A stretch of DNA of 33,167 nucleotides, taken from NCBI GenBank assembly GCA_964449105.1, contig CAYUYD010000003.1, positions 1 to 33,167 of the forward strand. Direction: 5' to 3'. The notes beneath the pieces were generated by a model, which saw nothing but the letters and a program-made list of their open reading frames with translations, did not search any database and was not told the DNA's origin. Every line of letters begins with the position of its first letter. Within the stretch, counting starts at the first letter, position 1. Positions 1,689-25,084 of this stretch are shown in pieces. The DNA is from an uncultured Planctomycetaceae bacterium. GTDB taxonomy: Bacteria > Planctomycetota > Phycisphaerae > SM23-33. Both the position numbers and the translations under genes were made by a program.

Positions 1689-1774
1689 TGCCGAAGGAGG
1701 GAGTCGAACCCTCACGGGGTGTAGGCCCCACAGGATTTTGAATCCTGCGCGTCTGCCAGTTCCGCCACTTCGGC
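1689..1774 (-). tRNA. tRNA-Leu (anticodon CAA)
   Basis: The reverse complement is GCCGAAGTGGCGGAACTGGCAGACGCGCAGGATTCAAAATCCTGTGGGGCCTACACCCCGTGAGGGTTCGACTCCCTCCTTCGGCA. It has a 7-bp acceptor stem, anticodon stem CAGGA/TCCTG with loop TTCAAAA, a long variable arm and a GGTTCGACTCC T-arm. Length is 86 nt. Confidence 0.9.
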
Positions 1775-3438: not shown

Positions 3439-4044
3439 TCACTCTACTGCCAATTCAACCTGCTCAACCAGTCTGGCCAAATCCAGCGGCTTAGGCAGGC
3501 ATATTTTCGCGCCGCAGTCCAGTATCCGACGGTTATTTTCGTCGGACGGATAGGCTGTAATTGCAATAACATCAGCATGTTTGGTCGCTTCCTGGGATTT
3601 AATCATCCGGCAGACCTCGAATCCGTCCATGCCCGGCATTCGCAGGTCCAGGATAACAACGTCGGGCTTAAGTGTCGCCACGACAGTCCCTGCCCGGAAA
3701 CCGTCTTGCACCTCTACAATTTCGTAATCAGGATGCGAATGCCCTATCGCCCTGGCGATTATCCGCGTCGCGTCCGGCTCATCATCGACTATCAGCACAC
3801 GCACCGGCACCTGCTCCAATCCAGCAGGGACCGGCATCTTGTGTTCACGCAGGAACCGCACAAGGTCATCGACGGCCACACGCCTGTGCCCCCCCGGAGT
3901 TCGATGAGCCTTCAACACACCGCTGTCAATCCAGTTTGCAACCGAACCGGGATCAACCTCGATCATCTCGGCGATATCAAACGTTGACAGGTTCCTTTTG
4001 CCTGCCTGGTCGCCTCGAGTCGATCTCCTGTCGCGCTTGCCCAT
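3439..4044 (-). CDS. Response regulator with N-terminal excisionase/MerR-type HTH (HTH_17-like) and C-terminal receiver domain
   Basis: ATG 4044 (MGKRDRR) is preceded by AAGGTGA. The HTH is LSTFDIAEMIEVDPGSVANWIDSGVLKAHRTPGGHRRV. The receiver has all canonical residues: LIVDDEP, VVILDLRMPGMDG, IAITAY, LPKP. Confidence 0.85.
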   Translation of the reverse strand: MGKRDRRSTRGDQAGKRNLSTFDIAEMIEVDPGSVANWIDSGVLKAHRTPGGHRRVAVDDLVRFLREHKMPVPAGLEQVPVRVLIVDDEPDATRIIARAIGHSHPDYEIVEVQDGFRAGTVVATLKPDVVILDLRMPGMDGFEVCRMIKSQEATKHADVIAITAYPSDENNRRILDCGAKICLPKPLDLARLVEQVELAVE

Positions 4045-5050: not shown

Positions 5051-5123
<73 letters not shown>

Positions 5124-6138: not shown

Positions 6139-8586
6139 TTACTTGACGCCGTAGAGCGCCTCTCGGTCGATGTTTCCTTCGAGGTCCCTGAGGATGTCGG
6201 GCAGTTCGACGCCGTCGCGGGCGGCAATCAGGCGCCCCATCGCCAGCGACACCGACAGGATCGCGTTCATGCCGAGGTTGGCCTTTCGCTGCATGACGGC
6301 TACCTGCTCATCGGCGCCGGCGCTGGCGGCCAACTTTTTGCGCTCGACAGCGACCTTGCGTTCGAGGTCCAGCATCTGCTTATCAACGTCGAACAGCCCG
6401 CCGACCTCGGCCAACGTCTTGCCCACGAACAGCGGGGCGATATACTTCTCGACGTTATCAACGGCATTGAGACAGCCCTTGCCTTTGTAACGCTGCGCCC
6501 GCCGCCACAGCTCCGACAGATCCTTGTCGTTCTTGCCATTGACGGTATCGTTGTTCACGTCCTTCTTGAAGGCGAAGGTTTTTCCGCTGTCCTTGCTGGC
6601 GAACAGGGTCGGATGCTTATCGGTGGCCTGGCACTTCTCGACGATGCTGTCGATCAGGTGGCTGGCTTCATCGCTGCCTGCCGATGTTCCCAGCGGCGTT
6701 GCGCCGGTGAAGGTTACGCCGTTCTCGAGACGGACGCTGACGCCGACCGTCGGGATTCCGGCGTTGGTGGCCTCTTCGCGGGCCAGGATAGCGGCTATCT
6801 TCAGGTCGGATTCCAGCGGGCGGGTAACCTTGATGCCCTTGGCGAGCATGTCCATCAGTTCGGTGATGCGGGCGTACTTTATCAGGCGTTCCGTGTTGGA
6901 CCCGCCGCCGCACTTCAGCGCCATGGCATCGACCGCGAAGCCGATGTCGGCCTCCATCGTGTCGTTGGGGCTTTTGGAGCGGTGGGAAACGACCAGCGCA
7001 GCCCCCCTGCTTTTGGCGGCATGAGTGGCCAGGAGCGTCTCGCAAAGCGAACCGATCTGGTTGGCCTTGACGAGGACGGTGTTCATCAGCCCGTCCTCTA
7101 TGGCCTTGATAATGTTGGTGTCCTTGGTGGTAACAAGGTCGTCGCCGATGATGAAGATGGTGTCGCCAAGTTCCTTCATCATCATCTTCCAGCCTTCCGG
7201 GTCGTCCTCGGCATGGCCGTCCTCGATGGAGACGATGGGGTACCTTGCGACCCAGTCCTTGTACATCTCCACGAGTTCTTCGCTGGTCATAACCTTGGGT
7301 TCTTCGGCCCGCCAGAAGGAATACTGTCCGATGGCGTCGGTCCGTCCGGTCTCTTCGCGGAAGGCGACGCTCAGTTCGGTTGCAGCCGGGTCAAGCGCCA
7401 GGGCGACGTCCACGCCCGGTATGAATCCACACTCCTCAATGGCCTGGACGGCGACCTTGAGTGCGCGTTCTTCGGGGATGGCGTCGTCGCCGCGTCTGCT
7501 GTAAGCGCCGACCATTCCGCCTTCAAGACCGATGCCGACGAAGTTCATGCCTTCGGAATCCTGGACGATCTGGATGACGCGGCTTTGAAGGGCGTTTGTC
7601 ATCCGCTGGGCCTCGACGTAATTCGTGGCAGAGAGGGGAAGGAACATGAATTCCTGGAAGGAGAGGTTTCCGCCCTGCTCCTCGGTGTGCCGACCGCCCA
7701 TGAGGCAGTTTCGGAACTGCCAAGGCGCGCGGACCGCCTTGCCGTCCACGTTGATTTCGCGGAGGCGGGTTTCCAGCATCTTCTTCTTTATGCCGGCGGT
7801 GTCCCATTTGCCGGCTGCGGCCGCACGACGGGCTTCCGCCGCCTTTGCGGCTGCACCGGACTGGCGGGCACGGAAACCCTTGAGCGCACCGTGGTCGGCC
7901 AACATGCGGTCAAGCAACGCCACGATGCCTATCGTTGCAAGTAATCGGCCTATGATGAGCACCAGGTTCATTCCGCCGATTGTCGCGCCGGTCAGCACCG
8001 TCAGCGACAGAGTTGACAATACAACCCCCAACGGCAGCGTCGCCATGGACAGTTTGGCGCTGATGGTGGGACCGGCAGCCGAGACCGCCAGGTTCTGGGT
8101 CTTGACGTCCGGGAAAAAATTACCGGCCTCTTTCTTGATGCCGGGGAACTTCCCGAACGGTATAAGCAGAATCGCCTTAAGGTACAGGCCGAACTTGTTC
8201 GTCGCCAGTTGCCTGTCGGCCGATTCGAGGTATTCCGGACGGAGGTTGTTGGTCCGCACCGCCGCCAGGTAATGGCCTAACTCGTGGATGGCAATGTTGA
8301 GGTGATACGAGAGGTACAGGATAATCGCCGAAACGATTACTTCCCCGTGGATGGGATTGAACATGAAGTTCAGCACCTTCCACTTTGTCCATATCTTGTC
8401 GGTCCCCAGCATCAGCAGGCTCGACAGGAACGCCACGTGGAAGGAAACGAGTTTATGGTTTGCGATGACCCATCCTTCTTCCAGGAGTCCCGGTCGCCAG
8501 GAAGGTCTCATCCTTCCGCCGGAGCGGATTCTGCCGATAAGATTTACTATACCTTCATATACCTTCACAGATGTGCTGCCCGACAT
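6139..8586 (-). CDS. Membrane M50/site-2-protease-like domain fused to a circularly permuted enolase (Enolase_C barrel followed by Enolase_N domain)
   Basis: ATG 8586 (MSGSTSV) is preceded by GAAAGGA. The N-terminal ~245 aa have TM segments with HELGH inside a helix, then IPFGKFPG, AAGP and ALLD motifs in M50 order. Residues ~290-600 match the enolase barrel: LMGGRH, SFQEFMFLP, GLEGG, ALALDPAATE, YPIVSIEDG, IIGDDLVTT, LVKANQIGS, VVSHRSKSPNDTMEADI, ALKCGG. Residues ~605-815 match the enolase N-domain: KIAAILAREEATNAGIPTVGVSVRLENG, TPLGTSAGSDEA, YKGKGCLNAVDNV, LGMNAILSVSLA. Confidence 0.85.
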   Translation of the reverse strand: MSGSTSVKVYEGIVNLIGRIRSGGRMRPSWRPGLLEEGWVIANHKLVSFHVAFLSSLLMLGTDKIWTKWKVLNFMFNPIHGEVIVSAIILYLSYHLNIAIHELGHYLAAVRTNNLRPEYLESADRQLATNKFGLYLKAILLIPFGKFPGIKKEAGNFFPDVKTQNLAVSAAGPTISAKLSMATLPLGVVLSTLSLTVLTGATIGGMNLVLIIGRLLATIGIVALLDRMLADHGALKGFRARQSGAAAKAAEARRAAAAGKWDTAGIKKKMLETRLREINVDGKAVRAPWQFRNCLMGGRHTEEQGGNLSFQEFMFLPLSATNYVEAQRMTNALQSRVIQIVQDSEGMNFVGIGLEGGMVGAYSRRGDDAIPEERALKVAVQAIEECGFIPGVDVALALDPAATELSVAFREETGRTDAIGQYSFWRAEEPKVMTSEELVEMYKDWVARYPIVSIEDGHAEDDPEGWKMMMKELGDTIFIIGDDLVTTKDTNIIKAIEDGLMNTVLVKANQIGSLCETLLATHAAKSRGAALVVSHRSKSPNDTMEADIGFAVDAMALKCGGGSNTERLIKYARITELMDMLAKGIKVTRPLESDLKIAAILAREEATNAGIPTVGVSVRLENGVTFTGATPLGTSAGSDEASHLIDSIVEKCQATDKHPTLFASKDSGKTFAFKKDVNNDTVNGKNDKDLSELWRRAQRYKGKGCLNAVDNVEKYIAPLFVGKTLAEVGGLFDVDKQMLDLERKVAVERKKLAASAGADEQVAVMQRKANLGMNAILSVSLAMGRLIAARDGVELPDILRDLEGNIDREALYGVK

Positions 8587-8776
8587 TATATTTTTCCTTT
8601 CTTTTCCCTGATTTTTGACAATCAATTAGGGGATTCCCGATTACATTGTGGCCGAAAGGCCCGTAAAAAACCGAGGCAGTATCGCATTATAATCGGTGAA
8701 ATGCAATAGTTGAGTTGGCGAGGCATGAAAGTTTCTTTCCACGCGCCGGCTTGGCGATACAATAAAGCAATCGCAT

Positions 8777-14002: not shown

Positions 14003-14527
14003 TCAGTAGGTCAGATTCCGTCGAGGACAGGCAGAGGCGGTAACTGATAGAGAGTTTCCGCCGGACTCCAGGTCCAGTCGAACCGTTACGCTCTTGGTAT
14101 ATTCAATTCCTTCGCCGTCCAGGCCGATGTCAGGGTCGATAAAGAAGTCCGTAACCTGCACCTCCTCGTCTGAAGCGATAAGAGGTTCAGATGTCTGCGT
14201 TCCGCTGACGGTGCGGCGGCAATAGAGGGCTCCGCCGACCAGTTCGTATTCGATTTTCGTCAGGCCTTCGGGATTGGTCGGCGGGACGATGGTAACTCGT
14301 TGTGAGGATGAATCAACGCCATCGGCAGTGCGAATCTCCGACATCATCCGGTTGAGCACGACTCGCGCGGTTTGTGTCAGTTGAGCGATTTTCGTATTTT
14401 CGCCGTAGTTCTGAAAACCGGCCTGCATTGCCATCGCCACCGCCGACAGGAGAATAGCCAGTATCGTCAGGGCCATCAGCATTTCGACAATCGTAAAGCC
14501 CCGCCGGGTTTGTGCTTGTTTCGTCAT
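14003..14527 (-). CDS. Prepilin-type N-terminal cleavage/methylation domain protein (GspJ-like minor pseudopilin)
   Basis: The N-terminus is MTKQAQTRRGFTIVEMLMALTILAILLSAV (the GFTxxE motif plus a hydrophobic helix). An ATGA overlap joins it to the upstream gene. Confidence 0.8.
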   Translation of the reverse strand: MTKQAQTRRGFTIVEMLMALTILAILLSAVAMAMQAGFQNYGENTKIAQLTQTARVVLNRMMSEIRTADGVDSSSQRVTIVPPTNPEGLTKIEYELVGGALYCRRTVSGTQTSEPLIASDEEVQVTDFFIDPDIGLDGEGIEYTKSVTVRLDLESGGNSLSVTASACPRRNLTY

Positions 14528-15891
14528 GGTGTTACTTCCTCGTAGGAACCCGGAACCGGTTCCAGCGCGAAGGGCTTTATGAATCCGGCGGCATTTGGGT
14601 CGGCGTTCAGCCGATCTACGAAGATGTCCACGTTACCCCCCACACTTGTCGGCAGGTCTTCCAGACCTATTACGGAACCTTTGACGGTTCCTTCGGCAGT
14701 ACCGGTGAAAGTCAACTGGTCGGCGGCGATTGAGCCGTTAATCGCAGAGAAATTTCCCGCGAAGGTTACTCCAAAGCCCGGCGCCAAAATGAATGTGCCC
14801 GTCTGCTGTTTGACATCGGAAAACTCCGACGTGTCGGGCAGGGCCTCGACTCCGTTAGCCACGACGCGGCCGGCGAACCTCAACTGGCAGGTGCTGATTG
14901 GTTCACCGCTTTCTTCGGTAACCACTATGCCGTTCAGCGTGCATTTGCCCTCAAACCGGACGTTGTTCGGCGACTCGATATAGACAACGCCGTTGAGCAC
15001 GACATCACTGGTGAAGTTCGGGTTCATCCCGGCAGGGATTAGCAGGTTGTTATATACGTCCTTGTTGGTCGGGTCGCTCGGCTGGAGGGTGTATGTCGCC
15101 AGGGCGGCGATCGGCGCAACGTCAATCTCCGGGAAATCCGGTCCTTGCACCCCGTTATGCACATGCTTGGCGATCTCGGCCAGGTCCTGGGTTCCGGCGA
15201 CTGTCGGGCTGCCGGATATGGACACGTAGGCGTCAGTTCCGGCGGCATAGAGGTCGCCGTCAACTTCGGCGTGCCCGGCCAGGCAGAGGGCGTCGAGATG
15301 CGAAGTCGTTACCGAGATGACGCTCGCTTCGGACGGATCGTTGACTCCCAGAATACGGGCGCTTCCGAAGATCGAAATCTGTCCGCGCGAAGCCAGGCCG
15401 TAATCAAATACCGCCGCCGGTTTGGACACGAGCATCAGGTCCATGACCAGGCAGCGTGTAACGCCGCCGAACGATCCGCTGACCTTCATTTGGCACCGGT
15501 CCGAATCCAACGGGGTGAACCAGCAGCGGAAGGACTTCCCCTCCACCTGTATATCGGGAACCAGGACGGACTCGCCGATAATGATCACTTGTCCGGCGGC
15601 GAGGTTGACCGTACCTTCCAGCCGATCGGCCAGAGCCTTCCTCATATTGACGCAAAATGTTTCTTCCGAGGTGCTTCCGGGCAACCTGACACTTTCGAGA
15701 ACGTTGAGCATAAACGCCAGCCCGCTCTCGGCGGCCATTTGCGCCCCGGCGGAGTTACGACAGTTGCTGCTTTTTTGCAGGTCCAGGTCGGTAGTTGAGG
15801 CAAAAGCCACCGCCAGCGTACTGAAAATCGCCAGCAGCAGAAGGGCCAGTACGTAGGCAAACCCATGATTGAATTTATTCGACGGTCCCAT
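14524..15891 (-). CDS. Large pseudopilin-associated protein (GspK/PilX-like, N-terminal TM anchor)
   Basis: ATG 15891 follows AAGGAGG. The N-terminus is MGPSNKFNHGFAYVLALLLLAIFSTLAVAFA. The gene sits between two pseudopilin genes. The remainder is G/V/T-rich and looks beta-rich. Confidence 0.6.
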   Translation of the reverse strand: MGPSNKFNHGFAYVLALLLLAIFSTLAVAFASTTDLDLQKSSNCRNSAGAQMAAESGLAFMLNVLESVRLPGSTSEETFCVNMRKALADRLEGTVNLAAGQVIIIGESVLVPDIQVEGKSFRCWFTPLDSDRCQMKVSGSFGGVTRCLVMDLMLVSKPAAVFDYGLASRGQISIFGSARILGVNDPSEASVISVTTSHLDALCLAGHAEVDGDLYAAGTDAYVSISGSPTVAGTQDLAEIAKHVHNGVQGPDFPEIDVAPIAALATYTLQPSDPTNKDVYNNLLIPAGMNPNFTSDVVLNGVVYIESPNNVRFEGKCTLNGIVVTEESGEPISTCQLRFAGRVVANGVEALPDTSEFSDVKQQTGTFILAPGFGVTFAGNFSAINGSIAADQLTFTGTAEGTVKGSVIGLEDLPTSVGGNVDIFVDRLNADPNAAGFIKPFALEPVPGSYEEVTP

Positions 15892-15893
15892 CC

Positions 15894-16409
15894 CTAATTC
15901 CTCCTTGTAACAAGCCATCCGGTCGTAAGCACAGGCTGACTCCCGTGCGAAACTAAAACTTCGACATATATCATCTCGCTCGCTCCATTGGCGACGGTCG
16001 CCGAGAGGTTATCCGGGTTCCGCCATGTCAGCGTAATCTTCTGCGACCAGCCCGGCATGTCGGTAAGCGCCTGACCGGTTCCGTTTCTCGGCGGGCTGTA
16101 GGTTACGCCCGCCAGGTCGTCCAGATCATCGACGAACGTCTGCGGGTTTTCCCATCCGTCCGGACCGGGGGGATTATCGGGTGTTTCAGGGTCCAGGAAA
16201 GGCAGTTTCAGCGTCCACTCGCGGATTTCCTGTCCCAGGTTAATCGCATGGGTAATTTCCCTGGCACTGGCGTTGACCTGTGTGCCGGACTTCGTCGCGA
16301 CCATCATCGCCGAGACCCCCACGCCCACAAGGACAGATGCAATCAGGGCCTCTATGAGCGTAAAACCGCTCCGGCTGGCATGGCTTCGCTGCCCTGTTCG
16401 CGCCGACAT
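15894..16409 (-). CDS. Prepilin-type N-terminal cleavage/methylation domain protein (GspI/H-like pseudopilin)
   Basis: ATG 16409 follows GGAGGG. The N-terminus is MSARTGQRSHASRSGFTLIEALIASVLVGVGV. The longer 16739 start would overlap gspF. Confidence 0.8.
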   Translation of the reverse strand: MSARTGQRSHASRSGFTLIEALIASVLVGVGVSAMMVATKSGTQVNASAREITHAINLGQEIREWTLKLPFLDPETPDNPPGPDGWENPQTFVDDLDDLAGVTYSPPRNGTGQALTDMPGWSQKITLTWRNPDNLSATVANGASEMIYVEVLVSHGSQPVLTTGWLVTRRN

Positions 16410-16441
16410 TGAATCAACCCTCCAAAAATACAACTTTAGTC

Positions 16442-17668
16442 CTATTTCACCAACTGCGACATCTTGAAGATTGGGAGAATTATGCTCATGGCGATAAAAC
16501 CGACGAGAAAACCCATCAGGACGATCATCAACGGTTCGATCATCGCCGTTACCGCCTTGATAACGTTCCTCAGTTCCCGGGCGTAATATTCGGCTACGTC
16601 GGTAAGCACCTCTGCAAGTTTTCCGGATTCCTCCCCGGCGGAGATCATCTGAACGACGTTTCTGGGCAACAGGCCGTGCCTGGACAACGGTCCGGCGATC
16701 TGCTTTCCGCCCTTGACAGACTGGTGAACCGTCATCCACATCTGCCTGAAAAGCGTATTACCGGAAACCTCCGCTGTGATATTAATAGTCTCAAGCATGG
16801 GCACGCCGGCATTGACCATCTCGCCCATAGTCTGGAGCCCTCGCGTGATGTACAACGCGCGGAAGACCTTCTTCAGCAGCGGCAGGCGAAGTTTGGTCAT
16901 GTCCCACCACTTGCAGCCGAAAGGCGTGCGGATGAAGTACCAGCCCCCCCCCACCAGTGTGCATACCGTTGCGACTACAACGTACCAGTAGCCTCGCAAA
17001 AACGCACTGGTCGCCAGAAGCAGCGTCGTCGGCATCGGAAGCAGGTGTTCCTTACCGGCGAAGAGCGTCGTGAACTTCGGCAATACGAAGGTCAGCAGGA
17101 AAATGGTCGTAGAAATCGCCATCACCGCGATAATAATCGGGTACACCATCGCCCCGCGAATCATTGAACGCGTCTCAATCTGCTGATACAGGTAAGCGGA
17201 AATCCGCTCCAGCATGTGCCCGAAATTGCCTGACATCTCAGAGGCCTTGACCATGTTGACGTAAAGCGGGCTGAACACCTTCGGATGCCTGGCCAGTGCC
17301 TCTGAAAACGGCTTGCCCGACTCGAGGTCTTCGCGGATCTTGTGCAGAATCTTACGGAACGCCGGGTTCTCAACCTGCTCGGCGATGCTCTCGGTCGCGC
17401 CTCGAATGTCGATACCGGCTTTAATCATTACAGACAACTGATTGGTGAAGGTGAAAACATCCTTAGGCCCCGGGCCAAAATTTATGCTGAATGTTCGGAT
17501 ACGTTCAAAAAGCGACTTTCCGCTCGACTTCGTCGGGGAAATATCCAGCAGGTATCCCGCATCCTGATTTCGGACCATTACCGCCGCCTCGGTGAGACTG
17601 CCGGCGGCGATCTCGCCGCCCATTACCCCGCCTCCCTGACCCCTCAACTGATACTGATACATCGGCAT
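16442..17668 (-). CDS. gspF: Type II secretion / type IV pilus platform protein (GspF/PilC family)
   Basis: This 408-aa polytopic protein has duplicated T2SSF-type regions (FTNQLSVMIKAGIDI..., RALYITRGLQTMGEMVNAGVPMLETI...). Confidence 0.9.
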   Translation of the reverse strand: MPMYQYQLRGQGGGVMGGEIAAGSLTEAAVMVRNQDAGYLLDISPTKSSGKSLFERIRTFSINFGPGPKDVFTFTNQLSVMIKAGIDIRGATESIAEQVENPAFRKILHKIREDLESGKPFSEALARHPKVFSPLYVNMVKASEMSGNFGHMLERISAYLYQQIETRSMIRGAMVYPIIIAVMAISTTIFLLTFVLPKFTTLFAGKEHLLPMPTTLLLATSAFLRGYWYVVVATVCTLVGGGWYFIRTPFGCKWWDMTKLRLPLLKKVFRALYITRGLQTMGEMVNAGVPMLETINITAEVSGNTLFRQMWMTVHQSVKGGKQIAGPLSRHGLLPRNVVQMISAGEESGKLAEVLTDVAEYYARELRNVIKAVTAMIEPLMIVLMGFLVGFIAMSIILPIFKMSQLVK

Positions 17669-17907
17669 CGCTTTTTACCTCCGCCGCACCGGCAACTTCT
17701 CGTGAACAGACAAAATCCGCTTTGATAACCCCAATTAAAGCCTACGATTCGCATGGGGGAGGGGCAAATCTGCGTAATTTTTCCCGTTCAGGGCGTTTTC
17801 TGCGGGTGGCGCAGGTCCCGCAAGGGATGCTGCGAATTTTCAACCTGTGCCGCCATGGTTACAGAATTGTTTTAACTGCTGATACCTCGTAAAATTACCC
17901 CACAGAA

Positions 17908-19275
17908 ATGATGATGCAAAACCAACAAAATCCGTCAAAAATGCTTTTTCGTTTCAGTCTCTACGGCTTCCTGAAAAATCAGCAGTACTACGACCCGTTC
18001 CTTATACTTTTTTTCCGTCAGGCGGGCTTGAGTTTTTCCCTTATTGGGCTGCTGGTCGGTTTCCGTGAATTGCTTATCAACATTTTCGAGGTTCCCAGCG
18101 GGGCTTTGGCGGACCTTTACGGTCGGCGGCGGTGCATGATGTTCAGTTTCTGCGCGTTCATCGCTTCTTTCGCCGTCTTTGCATTCTCTTCGGGAATGTG
18201 GCATTTCTTCGCGGCGATGGCATTGTTCGCTCTCGGCGACGCCTTTCGCACCGGCACGCACAAGGCCATGATCTTCGGCTATCTCGTGTTCGAAGGGCGA
18301 AGCGATGAAAAAACCAGGTATTACGGTACGACGCGGGCGTTCTCGAAAATCGGTTCGGCTGTTTCCGTTGTCATCGCCTCGGCGATAGTGTTCGGCGCAG
18401 CGGGCCTTCAGACCGGCGCAGACCTGGCTGTGTACAAATACCTATTCCTCGCCAGTATCGTCCCCTATGTTGCCGGTCTGATTAACTTCGCCGGTTATCC
18501 CGATCACCTCGATGGTCCCGGCGGGCGGGCTGTTTCGGCCAGGCAGGTTCTCGGGCACCTGTACCGCGTCGGCAGGCAGACGCTGAAGGCTTCTCGCATG
18601 CGCGGGCTGATGATTGAGTCGATGGGGTTTGATGGAACCTACAAGGTCGCGAAGGACTATCTCCAGCCGGTCATAAAGATCGCCGCCCTGTCGCTTCCCT
18701 GTTTTGCGGGATTGGGAAATATCCAACGGACGGCGGGGCTTATTTTGGTTGTATATGTCGTGCTCCATCTTTTTGAGAGCCTGGCCTCCCGACGCAGCGA
18801 TACATTACGCAGGTATTCCGGCGGAAGCGAGCGAAGCGCGACGTTTCTATGGTGGGCGAATCTGTTTATCTTCGCCGCCATTGCCGCGGGGCTTGGGTTG
18901 GACTTTTGTCTTGGCGAAACGGCGGCGGGATTGGGGCTGGCTGTAGCGATAGTCGGTTTCCTGGTTCTGGCGGTGATTCAGAACCTCTGGTGTCCTATAC
19001 AAATCGGTCGATTCAACGCCGCCAGCGACCCCGCAGACGGGGCGACCGTCTTGAGTATAGAATCTCAGGTTACAAGCCTGTCGGCGGCGATTCTCGCGCC
19101 GCTTCTGGGTCTGGCGGTGGACTGGGTCGGATCATTAAGCCGGCCGGGCGGAAAAGGGGTTTCGTTTGTCCCCGTCGCGCTGACCGGGCTGGGAATTACC
19201 GCGGCGATGATTGTCTTTCGCCGGCAGGCGGTCCGACGGAACAATTCTTCACAAGCACCGGATGACAACGTATAA
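17908..19275 (+). CDS. MFS transporter
   Basis: The 455-aa protein has about 12 hydrophobic segments and an MFS loop motif GALADLYGRRR. Confidence 0.85.
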   Translation: MMMQNQQNPSKMLFRFSLYGFLKNQQYYDPFLILFFRQAGLSFSLIGLLVGFRELLINIFEVPSGALADLYGRRRCMMFSFCAFIASFAVFAFSSGMWHFFAAMALFALGDAFRTGTHKAMIFGYLVFEGRSDEKTRYYGTTRAFSKIGSAVSVVIASAIVFGAAGLQTGADLAVYKYLFLASIVPYVAGLINFAGYPDHLDGPGGRAVSARQVLGHLYRVGRQTLKASRMRGLMIESMGFDGTYKVAKDYLQPVIKIAALSLPCFAGLGNIQRTAGLILVVYVVLHLFESLASRRSDTLRRYSGGSERSATFLWWANLFIFAAIAAGLGLDFCLGETAAGLGLAVAIVGFLVLAVIQNLWCPIQIGRFNAASDPADGATVLSIESQVTSLSAAILAPLLGLAVDWVGSLSRPGGKGVSFVPVALTGLGITAAMIVFRRQAVRRNNSSQAPDDNV

Positions 19276-19354
19276 TCCACTCGCCGTTTATCGTCGCCGT
19301 GCCGGCGACGGCTAAACGAGTTACCGGCGCCGAATCCTGATACGAGGTTTTGAC

Positions 19355-19882
19355 ATGGCAAGGCATCAAAAACGCATAGTTGTTTTCCCGGGCACCTTCG
19401 ACCCGATCACCAACGGGCATCTTGACGTAATTCAGCGCGGGCGGAAACTTTTCGACGAACTCATCGTCGCCGTTGGAACCAATCCCGAAAAGCAGACGCT
19501 CTTCAGCCTGAATGAACGGGTCGAACTGATCCGCAAGGTTCTGGCCGATTACCCTGACGTCCGCGTGGAGGCATTCGAGGGGCTGACCGTGGACTTCGCC
19601 GGGAAGATCGGCGCAGAGGCCATTCTTCGCGGCATCCGAAACAGTTCTGACCTGCAGTTTGAGTTCCAGGTCGCCCTGACCAACCGTGTCGTAGCCGGCG
19701 TGGAGACGATATTCATTATGACCAACCCGGATTTTGCGTTCACCTCCTCGTCGCTGATAAAGCAGATAGCCTCGATGGGCGGGGACGTCTCCGCCCTGAT
19801 TCCGACGCCGGTGATGGATGCCATCCTGGCCAAGCGCAGCGGAATTGCCAGCAGCGACCATCATCTGGAAGAAACCGGATAA
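19355..19882 (+). CDS. coaD: Phosphopantetheine adenylyltransferase
   Basis: KRIVVFPGTFDPITNGHLDVIQRG and the downstream SSSLIKQI are typical of CoaD. Confidence 0.92.
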   Translation: MARHQKRIVVFPGTFDPITNGHLDVIQRGRKLFDELIVAVGTNPEKQTLFSLNERVELIRKVLADYPDVRVEAFEGLTVDFAGKIGAEAILRGIRNSSDLQFEFQVALTNRVVAGVETIFIMTNPDFAFTSSSLIKQIASMGGDVSALIPTPVMDAILAKRSGIASSDHHLEETG

Positions 19883-19887
19883 GAAGA

Positions 19888-19982
19888 AAAATAGCAGGAT
19901 TACAGGGATTTTGAGATTATATTGATTGAAACAAAGAAAAATCCCTATAATCCAATAATTAATCCTCGTAATTCCGCTCTGT
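19888..19982. repeat. Intergenic inverted repeat, family 1 copy B (degenerate)
   Basis: The left arm AAAATAGCAGGATTACAGGGATTTTGAGATT pairs with AATCCCTATAATCC...AATCCTCGTAATTCCGCTCT. It begins 6 nt after the coaD stop. Confidence 0.65.
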
Positions 19983-20047
19983 TCTGCTGACTGTAACGGA
20001 CGACGTTTGAATTTTCCAAATACTGTGCAATCTTTGTTGTAATCATC

Positions 20048-20160
20048 AAAAAAAAGACGGCATCAGGGGAGGGGAGCCTGATACCGTCTAATAACTCGGC
20101 CAAGGGAGGGAGCCCGGCCGAGGAGCCTCATATTCTTCGCTGTGCTTCCACTCCTACAGC
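20048..20160 (-). ncRNA. Candidate small RNA (~110 nt) with CU-rich hairpin loops and an intrinsic terminator
   Basis: The minus strand reads CGCTGT-aggagtggaagc-ACAGCG, then CTCGGCC-gggctccctccctt-GGCCGAG, then ACGGTATCAGG-ctcccctcc-CCTGATGCCGT followed by TTTTTTTT. It lies directly downstream of a near-consensus promoter. There is no ORF. Confidence 0.55.
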
Positions 20161-20164
20161 GTGT

Positions 20165-20193
20165 ATTCTATCGCTTTAAGAAAAATCTGTCAA
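20165..20193 (-). promoter_or_regulatory. Near-consensus sigma70-type promoter TTGACA-17-TAGAAT (minus strand) driving the sRNA candidate
   Basis: The minus strand reads TTGACAgatttttcttaaagcgaTAGAAT, with -35 at 20193-20188 and -10 at 20170-20165. It lies 66 nt downstream of the nadD stop. Confidence 0.55.
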
Positions 20194-20258
20194 GCAGAAA
20201 AACCACTATTTTCACCGATTTTATAAAATATTTTCTCCGGCAAGCCGACGGGCACGAT

Positions 20259-20900
20259 TCAACCCGCCCCATAAAGACCCCGTTTGCGAATGTAATTTAT
20301 TATGGTATCGGGTGTTAAATACTTCACCGACTTTGCTGTTTCGGCGGCGAGTCGGAGGCGGATATTCGTGCTGGATATGTCAATAAGTGGTGTCGAAATC
20401 ACGCCATCGGCCAGGCGGGATACCTGTTCTTTGGTGAAGTGGTCCCGCAGACCCTTAAGCACCGCAGGGATACGCTCGCTGTATGGCGGACGGGCGGCTG
20501 TGATGACCCTCGCCATTTCAATCACCTCTTCGGCATTGCGCCACGTCGGCAGGTCCTCGAGCATGTCGGCTCCGATTATCCAGTGCAGGTCCGCATCATG
20601 CCCATATTGTCGGCGGAGCGACGTCAGGGTATCGACTGTATAACTCGGCCCATCCCGCCGTAACTCGATGTCGCTTACGTCGAACATTTCCGAACCGGCC
20701 ACGACCAGACGGACCATTTCCAGGCGGTCGGCCGCCGGGGCGGATTTATGTTGGGATGCGCCCTTGTGCGGCGGGACCATCGCCGGCATGAATGTTACCT
20801 TGCGAAACCCGAAATGCTCGGCCACTGCCCTGGCTGTAATGAGATGCCCGTGATGGATCGGGTCGAACGTCCCGCCGAAAATGACAATTCGTTCAGCCAT
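20259..20900 (-). CDS. nadD: Nicotinate-nucleotide adenylyltransferase
   Basis: IVIFGGTFDPIHHGHL and the downstream ISSTNIR motif match NadD. The gene overlaps the upstream malic enzyme gene by 8 nt. Confidence 0.9.
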   Translation of the reverse strand: MAERIVIFGGTFDPIHHGHLITARAVAEHFGFRKVTFMPAMVPPHKGASQHKSAPAADRLEMVRLVVAGSEMFDVSDIELRRDGPSYTVDTLTSLRRQYGHDADLHWIIGADMLEDLPTWRNAEEVIEMARVITAARPPYSERIPAVLKGLRDHFTKEQVSRLADGVISTPLIDISSTNIRLRLAAETAKSVKYLTPDTIINYIRKRGLYGAG

Positions 20901-22350
20901 TGGTTTTGCCCATCAGGTCGTCAACATCCGGAATCGGACCGGCCGGTGCTCTGCTGACGCCGTCCTTTTCGGCGGCGTCCGCTACGGCGCGGGCGACGGC
21001 AGGAGCCACACGCGACTCGAATGCGGATGGAATGATGTAATCGCTTCGCAGTTCATCATCGCTAATCACCGCCGCGATCGCTGCCGCTGCCGCCATCTTC
21101 ATGCCCTCGGTGATGCAGGACGCTCGGCAGTCCAGTGCGCCGCGAAAGACGCCGGGGAAGGCCAAGACGTTGTTAATCTGGTTGGGGTAATCGCTCCGAC
21201 CGGTCGCCATTATGGCTGCGTGAGGAAGGGCGTCCTCCGGCTGGATTTCCGGGTCCGGATTCGACATGGCGAAGACTATTGCGTTATCGGCCATACTCCT
21301 GACGTCATCAACGGTCAGCGTACCGGGACCTGATACGCCGATAAAAACGTCCGCACCGGCGATTACGTCGGACAGCGAGCCTTTCAGCCCGTCCGGGTTG
21401 GTGTATTCGGCGTACTGCTGCTTGGACGGATTCATATGCTCGCTCCGGCCCTTGTAAATCGCCCCGGCGCGGTCGCATCCGATGATGTTCTTCGCACCGG
21501 CAGCCATGAGCAGACGAGTGCACGCCACACCGGCGGCGCCGGCCCCGCCGAAAACGATCTTCAGCGAGGCGATGTCCTTATCGACGATCTTCAGGGCGTT
21601 GGTCAGCGCCGCCAAAACAACGATGGCTGTACCGTGCTGGTCGTCGTGGAAGACCGGGATGTCAAGTTCGTCCCGTAATCGCTGCTCAATCTCGAAGCAT
21701 CGCGGGGCAGAGATGTCCTCCAGATTAATCCCGCCGAAGGTCGGCGCAATGGCCTTGACGATTGCGACGATTTCGTCCGGTTCGTGGGCGTCCAGGCATA
21801 TCGGTATGGCGTCCACGCCGCCGAACTGTTTGAAGAGCAACGCCTTTCCTTCCATTACCGGCATCGCCGCCAGCGGTCCCAGGTCGCCCAGACCGAGGAT
21901 GGCGCTGCCGTCGGTAACCACTGCCACGGTGTTGCATCTTATCGTCAGCCGGTATCCACGCCGCGGGTCTTCGTGAACTGCCCGGCAGACCCGCGCGACG
22001 CCCGGCGTATAAAGACGGGACAGGTCGTCCGAATCGCACAGCGGATACCGCCCGGCAATCTCCATTTTGCCGCCCTCATGACAGGCAAAGGTCATGTCTT
22101 CGACGGACAGGACCTCGACGTTTTCGACGGCCCGTAGTGCAGAGACGATTTTTCGCTGGTGGTCAACGTCCCGCGCACTGATGTCCACGTCGCGGACTAC
22201 GTATTCCCTTGTTTCATCGATAATTGTAACGTCCCCGACGTCCCCGCCGACATCGCCGATGGCCGAGGCGACGCTTCCGAACATCCCAGGCCGCTTAGGT
22301 ATCCCAAGCCGAACCGTAATACCGTATGCCGGACTGCAAACTCGCTTCAT
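20893..22350 (-). CDS. NAD(P)-dependent malic enzyme with N-terminal ACT domain
   Basis: The ACT-like N-terminus is ITVRLGIPKRPGMFGSVASAIGDVGGDV. It is followed by LYTPGVARVC, VAVVTDGSAILGLGDLG, MPVMEGKALLFKQFGGVD and VFGGAGAAG. Confidence 0.9.
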   Translation of the reverse strand: MKRVCSPAYGITVRLGIPKRPGMFGSVASAIGDVGGDVGDVTIIDETREYVVRDVDISARDVDHQRKIVSALRAVENVEVLSVEDMTFACHEGGKMEIAGRYPLCDSDDLSRLYTPGVARVCRAVHEDPRRGYRLTIRCNTVAVVTDGSAILGLGDLGPLAAMPVMEGKALLFKQFGGVDAIPICLDAHEPDEIVAIVKAIAPTFGGINLEDISAPRCFEIEQRLRDELDIPVFHDDQHGTAIVVLAALTNALKIVDKDIASLKIVFGGAGAAGVACTRLLMAAGAKNIIGCDRAGAIYKGRSEHMNPSKQQYAEYTNPDGLKGSLSDVIAGADVFIGVSGPGTLTVDDVRSMADNAIVFAMSNPDPEIQPEDALPHAAIMATGRSDYPNQINNVLAFPGVFRGALDCRASCITEGMKMAAAAAIAAVISDDELRSDYIIPSAFESRVAPAVARAVADAAEKDGVSRAPAGPIPDVDDLMGKTNG

Positions 22351-25011: not shown

Positions 25012-25084
25012 GGGGATGTAGCTCAGTTGGGAGAGCGGCTGGTTCGCAATCAGCAGGTCAGGGGTTCGAGCCCCCTCATCTCCA
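25012..25084 (+). tRNA. tRNA-Ala (anticodon CGC)
   Basis: The sequence is GGGGATGTAGCTCAGTTGGGAGAGCGGCTGGTTCGCAATCAGCAGGTCAGGGGTTCGAGCCCCCTCATCTCCA. The G3:U70 identity pair is present and the anticodon loop is TTCGCAA. Confidence 0.92.

Follow-up and report, generated by a model that had tools for sequence, protein, structure and literature searches.

The sequence CCUCC is the anti-Shine-Dalgarno core of 16S rRNA, and RsaE/RoxS RNAs of the Bacillales use unpaired C-rich motifs to pair with G-rich or Shine-Dalgarno (SD) sequences. Two further small RNAs (sRNAs), sX13 of the Xanthomonadaceae and RepG of Helicobacter, likewise pair with G-rich or SD sequences through unpaired C-rich motifs that are usually placed in loops. 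The 6C RNA pairs through its C-rich loops with G-rich ribosome-binding sites (RBSs) and does so with no chaperone (PMC6486639). The hairpin loops of the cuckoo/ar14 RNAs carry the anti-SD motif CCUCCUCCC, and the similar motifs of sX13 and RepG come with no detectable homology to cuckoo (PMC4615179). For the Planctomycetota, our literature search found no described sRNA, and small or non-coding RNAs are unmentioned in a 2025 review covering a century of research on this phylum. No description of the RNA family presented here was found either. This family, a candidate for regulatory RNA in the Planctomycetota, has strong comparative support from its promoter, covariation, terminator and synteny, and it could offer an entry point into post-transcriptional regulation in the Phycisphaerae.

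Results

A promoter-to-terminator unit follows nadD

The locus was examined in a 33,167-nt stretch of planctomycete DNA, referred to throughout as the window, where the unit lies on the minus strand between convergent nadD and coaD genes (Table 1). An earlier sequence-only reading of the window had proposed an sRNA candidate at this position, with a TTGACA-17-TAGAAT promoter placed 66 nt past the nadD stop. The promoter is real; our promoter scan finds agreement with the consensus at 11 of 12 positions, and it begins 65 nt past the stop. Directly upstream of the -35 box there is a T-rich tract, similar in most of the closer relatives, which possibly acts in the manner of an UP element. About 110 nt follow the promoter and close in a strong hairpin and eight U residues that end at 20048. 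From a predicted, unmapped transcription start at ∼20157-20160, the window most likely produces an RNA of ∼95-115 nt that has a sigma-70-type promoter and an intrinsic terminator of its own, and the lengths predicted for homologous loci range from 81 to 124 nt.

Table 1. Coordinates of the RNA locus and its neighboring genes in the window.
Feature	Position	Strand	Remarks
T-rich tract TGGTTTTTCTGC	20194..20205	minus	directly upstream of the -35 box
-35 box TTGACA	20193-20188	minus	promoter scan; hexamer exact in 22/24 homologous loci
-10 box TAGAAT	20170-20165	minus	17-nt spacer; TAnAAn-type hexamer at 16-17 nt in relatives
Variable 5' leader	20130..20160	minus	holds most of hairpin 1 (arms 20161-20156 / 20143-20138)
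Invariant block GAGGCUCCUCGG	20118..20129	minus	identical in 24/24 aligned homologues
Hairpin A	20095..20122	minus	10-bp stem, 8-nt loop CUCCCUCC (20112-20105) with CCUCC; RNAfold
Linker UUAUUA	20089..20094	minus	U/A-rich, single-stranded; U-rich and of variable length across homologues
Hairpin B, intrinsic terminator	20048..20088	minus	12-bp stem (20088-20077 / 20067-20056), then U8 (20055-20048)
nadD	20259-20900	minus	Pfam CTP_transf_like; followed by the RNA
Malic enzyme	20893-22350	minus	upstream of nadD
coaD-like nucleotidyltransferase	19355-19882	plus	converges on the RNA
MFS transporter	17908-19275	plus	precedes coaD

Three hairpins had been proposed for the transcript, and all of them are present in the window. 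The first, in which CGCTGT pairs with ACAGCG, is not conserved: it is deleted in the homologous locus L001 and is different or absent elsewhere, with no consistent hairpin at the 5' end. We therefore dropped hairpin 1 as a part of the family. What is left is an RNA of two hairpins behind a 5' leader whose length and sequence differ among loci, the core beginning 2-46 nt past the predicted start. The 5' arm of hairpin 1 begins 4 nt past the -10 box, so even in the window this hairpin may be incompletely transcribed. The second and third hairpins, here called A and B, were retained with small changes to their stems. Hairpin A had been described as CTCGGCC pairing with GGCCGAG, and RNAfold extends it to 10 bp. 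Hairpin B, which had been given an 11-bp stem, is indeed a terminator followed by U8, but its stem has 12-13 bp, and its 9-nt loop is CUCCCCUCC (20076-20068). Because this loop is longer than the limit of 8 nt in the tool used for our terminator scan, that scan did not list hairpin B. Ahead of hairpin A, the block GAGGCUCCUCGG consists of an SD-like GAGG and then a CU-rich CUCCUC, with its last five bases, CUCGG (20122-20118), opening the hairpin A stem. The U/A-rich linker and the 3' oligo-U tail might correspond to the 3' module of Hfq-type sRNAs.

Taken singly, the window sequence is only mildly beyond chance. Its fold has a z-score of -2.65, with 4 of 200 shuffled sequences folding equally well, and the surrounding 5.5 kb contain 6 promoter-like sites compared to the 2.8 ± 1.7 expected. 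It is the conservation of the feature in relatives that marks it as non-random.

The RNA is conserved downstream of nadD in relatives

To sample the locus by synteny, contigs encoding relatives of NadD were fetched, and the intergenic region downstream of nadD was compared among them. Of the 12 relatives that were identified by their NadD only, 10 have the element at this position, with NadD identities spanning 49-92% (L001, 92%; L086, 80%; L088, 78%; L004 and L090, 76%; L005, 67%; L091 and L092, 61%; L214, 58%; L006, 49%). The syntenic loci show no variation in the -35 box, the 12-nt block, the two loops or the U-run, and the flanks past the U-run are unalignable. A covariance model (R1) was built from the 10 syntenic sequences. 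The most distant of these loci, L006, came from a metagenome scan with a NadD alignment, for which the matches listed were distant NadDs only (at most 49% identity); the 79 other NadD loci from that scan, which belong to other taxa and served as a negative control, contained no match to R1.

The model was also applied to 80 loci obtained with a variable-gap pattern scan of GTDB species genomes. Among the pattern matches listed, at least 15 were true copies, scoring 79-109 bits, and chance matches from other phyla scored at most 18.5 bits; most of the matches listed were chance matches in GC-rich phyla, and those in Actinobacteria stayed under 19 bits. All of the at least 15 copies come from metagenome-assembled genome (MAG) records titled Planctomycetota, Phycisphaerae, Planctomycetaceae or Planctomycetales. 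The scan pattern fixed CTCCTCGG, TCCCTCC and CCGAG in 15 sequences, and the apparent invariance of these three segments in the scan sequences is inflated because the pattern imposed them. The covarying pairs and loop B fall outside the bases fixed by the pattern, and the identity of the block GAGGCUCCUCGG includes 11 loci that were obtained from synteny alone, free of search-pattern bias.

Homologues were found in at least 25 distinct loci including the window, with NadD identities across the carrier loci going from 93% down to 47%. All taxon-labelled homologues are Planctomycetota or Phycisphaerae MAGs, as are the top NadD homologues, the closest of which is 93% identical, and every carrier with an organism-named record is an uncultured MAG. 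No database record matched the NadD sequence of the window itself. A search of the 33-kb window with R1, with filters off, returned no second copy, and viral contigs gave no match to the RNA; the known distribution and the copy number per genome are lower bounds, taken from the genome-scan matches listed. In L213, a Phycisphaerae MAG whose NadD is 49% identical, only 77 nt separate the convergent nadD and coaD and the RNA is missing between them, so at least some Phycisphaerae lack the RNA at the nadD/coaD locus. As far as sampled, the family is confined to a subclade of the Planctomycetota, probably the class Phycisphaerae, a class assignment that for the carriers follows record titles only.

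Both hairpins covary, and the RNA is read from the minus strand

To examine the stems, 24 sequences were fitted to the covariance model (alignment A5), and the pairing figures carry the caveat of this fit. Standard base pairs occupy 97% of the paired cells in this alignment, and compensatory double changes are seen at 10 of 22 pairs. None of 500 column shuffles matched the covariation of A5, and sliding the 3' partners out of register left only 29-46% of cells paired. Hairpin A contributes 3 of the compensatory pairs among its 10, with 99.6% of cells paired and an invariant loop; its changes are G-C/A-U/U-A at the pair that closes the loop, C-G/U-A/G-C lower in the stem, and C-G/U-A at the third pair. 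In hairpin B, 7 of 12 pairs show compensatory changes. Conservation and covariation of the stems in relatives, the evidence on which the sequence-only reading had staked its proposal, are thus found for its second and third hairpins but not for its first.

Both hairpins were recovered independently by RNAalifold and are contained in the minimum free energy (MFE) fold of each homologue. The two loops are unpaired in every one of these MFE folds, reading (C/U)UCCCUCC in hairpin A and C(U/C)CC(C/A)CUCC in hairpin B, and the C-runs in CUCCCUCC and CUCCCCUCC are no longer than 4. Invariance extends from the loops into the upper stems (CUCGG/CCGAG and UCAGG/CCUGA). A T-run of at least 4 T follows hairpin B in all homologues. 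The G-U pairs in the stems, those of hairpin B among them, are frequent and occur on the minus strand only, at one pair in 16 of the 24 sequences, and would become A-C on the opposite strand; this confinement to one strand establishes that the RNA is read from the minus strand of the window.

The RNA is separable from nadD and contains no conserved open reading frame

Nearly all loci have the RNA flanked by converging nadD and coaD genes, and two exceptions separate it from one or the other gene. In assembly JAXHSV, the nadD locus (L002) is without the RNA, and the RNA together with its promoter is found beside coaD on another contig (L104). The breakpoint is just upstream of the promoter, and sequence of L002 is kept up to that point and then diverges. 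In L160, the RNA still follows nadD, and coaD is 3.4 kb away. The relocation of the RNA and its promoter away from nadD marks it as an independent gene rather than merely a nadD 3'UTR. Past the nadD stop, no convincing terminator was found ahead of the sRNA promoter; read-through from nadD is therefore likely and may provide a second, 3'UTR-derived source of the RNA.

The region had been described as free of open reading frames (ORFs). Mechanically called ORFs do overlap it, a 52-aa ORF with a TTG start (19945-20103) and a 22-residue AUG ORF, MRLLGRAPSLGRVIRRYQAPLP, but none is conserved across the 24 loci. The anatomy of the locus, its conservation, covariation, strand and autonomy, and the lack of a conserved ORF together define a non-coding RNA gene. 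That it represents an independent sRNA gene is well supported, because relatives share the two stems, the promoter, the terminator and the pair of CU-rich loops.

Potential pairing sites in the window

Each of the loops CUCCCUCC and CUCCCCUCC contains CCUCC. The sequence-only reading had called both loops complementary to local SD sequences, and this is the case, with RBSs of the GGAGG type present in the window; the SD-like sites that it cited exist ahead of the starts at 15891(-), 12357(+) and 16409(-). Two of the SD-type RBSs of the window, AAGGAGG ahead of 15891(-) and GGAGGG ahead of 16409(-), belong to a T2SS-F/pseudopilin operon. At the RBSs of the syntenic neighbors coaD and nadD we found at most a 4-nt SD core of the GAGG type, or nothing, and among the coaD and nadD starts that were sampled only about one in two has an SD-like motif. 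The GGGGAGGGG run at 17756-17764(+), located 145 nt upstream of the MFS transporter gene, is perfectly complementary to loop B over 9 nt; the closest relative retains only a part of this site, and the others lack it. A duplex-energy scan of the start sites in the window gave no clear outlier, and the best sites in the window, the pseudopilin-operon gene at 15891(-) and the GGGGAGGGG run, were unremarkable (reaching at best about the 1st percentile of background) or not conserved. No mRNA target emerged from the 33-kb window and the short homologous loci.

Comparison with Rfam families

An Rfam scan, which had been suggested as a check of the candidate, was run, and neither the window nor any of 20 homologue loci gave a match at the gathering threshold of an Rfam 15 family. 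The only sub-threshold resemblances in the region were to 6C and ar14. The better of the two was 6C (RF01066), whose model aligned over its full length (positions 1-75) and scored 31.6 bits against the window, where the cut-off is 47 (E = 0.019 in a 421-nt search). The ar14 model (RF02344) scored 23.8 bits against the window, with a cut-off of 58.8. The RsaE/RoxS, sX13 and RepG families returned nothing at E ≤ 10 when the region was scanned.

Discussion

We lean, with slightly better than even confidence, toward a role for the RNA in trans-acting SD occlusion, as the sequence-only reading had proposed. This role is favored because the RNA has a seed-presenting design, in which invariant loops are carried on covarying stems together with a U/A-rich linker and an oligo-U tail, and because its described analogues pair with G-rich RBSs. 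The exposed loops would pair in trans with GGAGG, GGGAGG or other G-rich or SD sites at the translation-initiation regions of mRNAs. Such pairing would keep the 30S subunit away and repress translation, and it might destabilize the mRNA as well. The terminator hairpin B would double as a second seed-presenting module, and the single-stranded CUCCUC of the 5' block may act as the loops do.

The strongest competing explanation, which the sequence-only reading had named as its alternative and which is an unlikely one in our judgment, is that the RNA pairs with no mRNA and instead binds or sequesters a protein, or binds the ribosome, as a decoy or scaffold. The loops and the 5' block would then be sites for a conserved pyrimidine-binding partner such as S1, a KH protein, a cold-shock-domain protein, Rho or Hfq. 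Repeated loop motifs that are strictly invariant, together with the stem tops and the 12-nt block, across a deep divergence would be expected in this case, since such invariance is met more typically in housekeeping RNAs, or in RNAs recognized by proteins, than in seed sRNAs, which evolve fast. The apparently single-copy state (one copy in the window), the fixed genomic position and the fact that no mRNA target stands out also fit. On the other hand, the genes beside the RNA encode biosynthetic enzymes and include no candidate partner, the loops match the anti-SD core exactly, and the characterized 6C and NfeR1/cuckoo RNAs act by base pairing. Stem tops and a 5' block that stay invariant at ∼47% NadD identity are nevertheless a stricter pattern than in typical seed-only sRNAs, one that protein or ribosome recognition would explain as well. 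A further and quite improbable proposal is that the RNA is no ordinary sRNA with few targets but a deeply conserved mimic of the 3' tail of 16S rRNA, which competes globally with ribosomes for SD sites or binds a factor central to translation or RNA metabolism. Loop A and its 3' flank read CCUCCUUU in eight homologues, which we take to be identical to the 3' end of 16S rRNA. If this proposal were true, the mimic would set the balance of SD-led and SD-less translation in the Phycisphaerae lineage, and its position between the adenylyltransferase genes nadD (NAD) and coaD (CoA) might couple translation control to cofactor or energy status.

A purely cis-acting role, in which the unit is the terminator of the nadD 3'UTR and an insulator between the converging nadD and coaD genes with no function in trans, would account for the textbook terminator in hairpin B, for the placement of the RNA between the two genes in nearly all loci, and for our failure to find, past the nadD stop, any convincing terminator ahead of the RNA. 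A terminator or insulator, however, needs neither invariant loops nor an invariant 5' block nor a conserved private promoter, and the promoter is kept both where the RNA is apart from nadD (L104) and where it is apart from coaD (L160). Moreover, no U-run follows the hairpin on the coaD strand, and in L213 the two genes converge without the RNA. We therefore regard this role as very unlikely. It is extremely improbable that the locus encodes a small protein, for which the window candidate would be the AUG ORF MRLLGRAPSLGRVIRRYQAPLP. An ATG or GTG does overlap the conserved GAGG in 17 of the 24 loci, and the first ∼14 codons are similar among loci, but the remaining 7 have no start codon (CTG, GAG, TAG, AAG, GCG or TCG is found instead), and the putative start is not preceded by an SD sequence. 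The predicted peptides scatter in length from 5 to 37 residues, indels in the linker fall into all three residue classes modulo 3, and the substitutions are doubles that preserve base pairs. Coding potential was dropped on the missing starts, the scattered peptide ends and the linker indels.

The candidate family is conserved far deeper than most sRNAs, and it could for this reason serve as a clade marker. Among described RNAs, its closest counterpart in design is 6C of the Actinobacteria (B11/6C of Mycobacterium, with relatives in Corynebacterium and Streptomyces). Both RNAs measure ∼75-100 nt or close to it and consist of two adjacent hairpins whose loops are rich in C or in C and U, the second hairpin being the terminator; both have a promoter of their own, that of 6C being strongly transcribed, and both are conserved very deeply inside one phylum. 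The two differ in that none of the 20 homologues examined reaches the 6C cut-off, and that 6C loops contain runs of 6 or more C, whereas the loops CUCCCUCC and CUCCCCUCC are mixtures of C and U with runs of 4 at most. The hosts are Actinobacteria in one case and Planctomycetota in the other, the genomic contexts differ, and the invariant 5' block of the planctomycete RNA, GAGGCUCCUCGG, has no counterpart in 6C. Convergence rather than homology is the simplest explanation of the resemblance to 6C.

The cuckoo/ar14 RNAs (RSs0680a and CcsR1-4 of Rhodobacter, NfeR1 of Sinorhizobium) are also built from modular adjacent hairpins with anti-SD-like C/U loops containing CCUCC, and they combine a fixed loop motif with compensatory evolution of the stems and a Rho-independent terminator at the end (PMC4615179). 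In contrast to the RNA described here, they are found only in Alphaproteobacteria, their genomes contain up to 9 copies, some in clusters, compared to one copy in the window, and their stems are far less conserved. The cuckoo loop motif CCUCCUCCC is absent from all of our aligned homologues. Their conserved neighbor is OG1, a gene whose function is unknown, rather than nadD and coaD, and the CcsR members have a maturation partner, the DUF1127 protein CcaF1. RsaE/RoxS, sX13 and RepG have motifs unlike those of the planctomycete RNA (CCCC, or a C/U-rich loop that faces a G-repeat) and differ from it in architecture and taxon as well. From these comparisons, it is well supported that the RNA represents a new family, one that resembles 6C and cuckoo in design and is a member of neither, and whose putative SD-blocking action would be of a kind already known. 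With 6C, cuckoo, RsaE and sX13 as precedents, it appears to be another, independent origin of the two-hairpin design with anti-SD loops, and this further apparent origin lends weight to the view that evolution has arrived at the design repeatedly.

Sites complementary to the sRNA loops

Loop B, the C/U-rich loop of the sRNA's terminator hairpin, is perfectly complementary over 9 nt to GGGGGAGGGG, and the duplex has an energy of -23.1 kcal/mol. The MFS gene starts 145 nt downstream of this site. At the homologous spot in L104, the closest relative, we found AAGGGAAGGAG, in which 11 of 12 bases match the complement of loop A, the C/U-rich loop of the other hairpin; in more distant relatives the site is missing. 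GGGGGAGGGG could be a target site specific to this lineage, or it could reflect a chance match.

When the start sites of the window were compared, the one at 15891 gave the best duplex with loop A (-17.7 kcal/mol), a value at about the first percentile of the background. The strongest GGAGG-type ribosome-binding sites in the window belong to the ORFs with prepilin motifs that come after the T2SS-F gene.

Sequences flanking the sRNA gene

Upstream of the sRNA promoter, a conserved block, AAAAYCGGTGAAAA, is separated from the -35 box by 12-15 nt in the nearest relatives. It may be bound by a regulator, or it may belong to the 3' end of nadD. Assembly JAXHSV is rearranged here, with nadD on one contig and the sRNA-coaD-MFS block on another, and the breakpoint is located directly upstream of the sRNA promoter (L002 3125-3760 versus L104 6061-6400, the two contigs concerned). 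The block is still found 3' of nadD in L002, although the sRNA has moved elsewhere. At L213, a locus of a Phycisphaerae MAG that lacks the sRNA at this place, the spacer between nadD and coaD (3727-3803) is 77 nt long and contains short direct repeats, CTCCGCACTTCGCACTCCGCACTTCGCAC, where the sRNA would be.

The window carries a long inverted repeat in the stretch from the coaD stop to the terminator of the sRNA, as do four of five relatives that were checked. Its sequence differs by lineage; in L086, TTGCTGA occurs six times in tandem. This repeat could be a U-less terminator of coaD or a small repeat element. The 3'-terminal part of the MFS gene contains a promoter-like site, TTCACA-17-TATAAT. 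It precedes the start of coaD by ~80 nt and may be an internal coaD promoter.

Features of the window and of related loci, in the numbering of each locus
Feature	Locus	Position	Strand	Remarks
Conserved block	window	~20206-20223	-	also at homologous positions in L001, L004, L149 and L002
Loop-complementary site	window	17755-17764	+	T2SS-F / MFS-coaD divergent intergenic region
Promoter-like site	window	19248-19276	+	near-consensus, 11/12
Inverted repeat	window	19880-19970	+	arms 33 nt, 73% complementary
Inverted repeat	L090	1942-2098		arms 69 nt, 88% complementary
Inverted repeat	L001	3348-3400		arms of TCAGCNT / ANGCTGA heptamer repeats
Inverted repeat	L086	3364-3463		TCAGCNT / ANGCTGA heptamer arms
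Inverted repeat	L088	2257-2335		TCAGCNT / ANGCTGA heptamer arms
T2SS-F gene, then ORFs with N-terminal methylation (prepilin) motifs	window	14003-17668	-	
tRNA gene	window	1689-1774	-	long variable arm
tRNA gene	window	5051-5123	+	
tRNA gene	window	25012-25084	+	

Other genes of the window

A long minus-strand ORF (6139-8625) matches the enolase Pfam with its domain order scrambled, and these matches may be an artefact of the overlapping ORF on the opposite strand (6613-7944, plus). The nadD start and the end of the malic-enzyme ORF share 8 nt (20893-20900), and because of this overlap, translational coupling or an operon is suggested for the two genes. Their linkage is preserved in the closer relatives, L001, L004, L005, L086 and L090.
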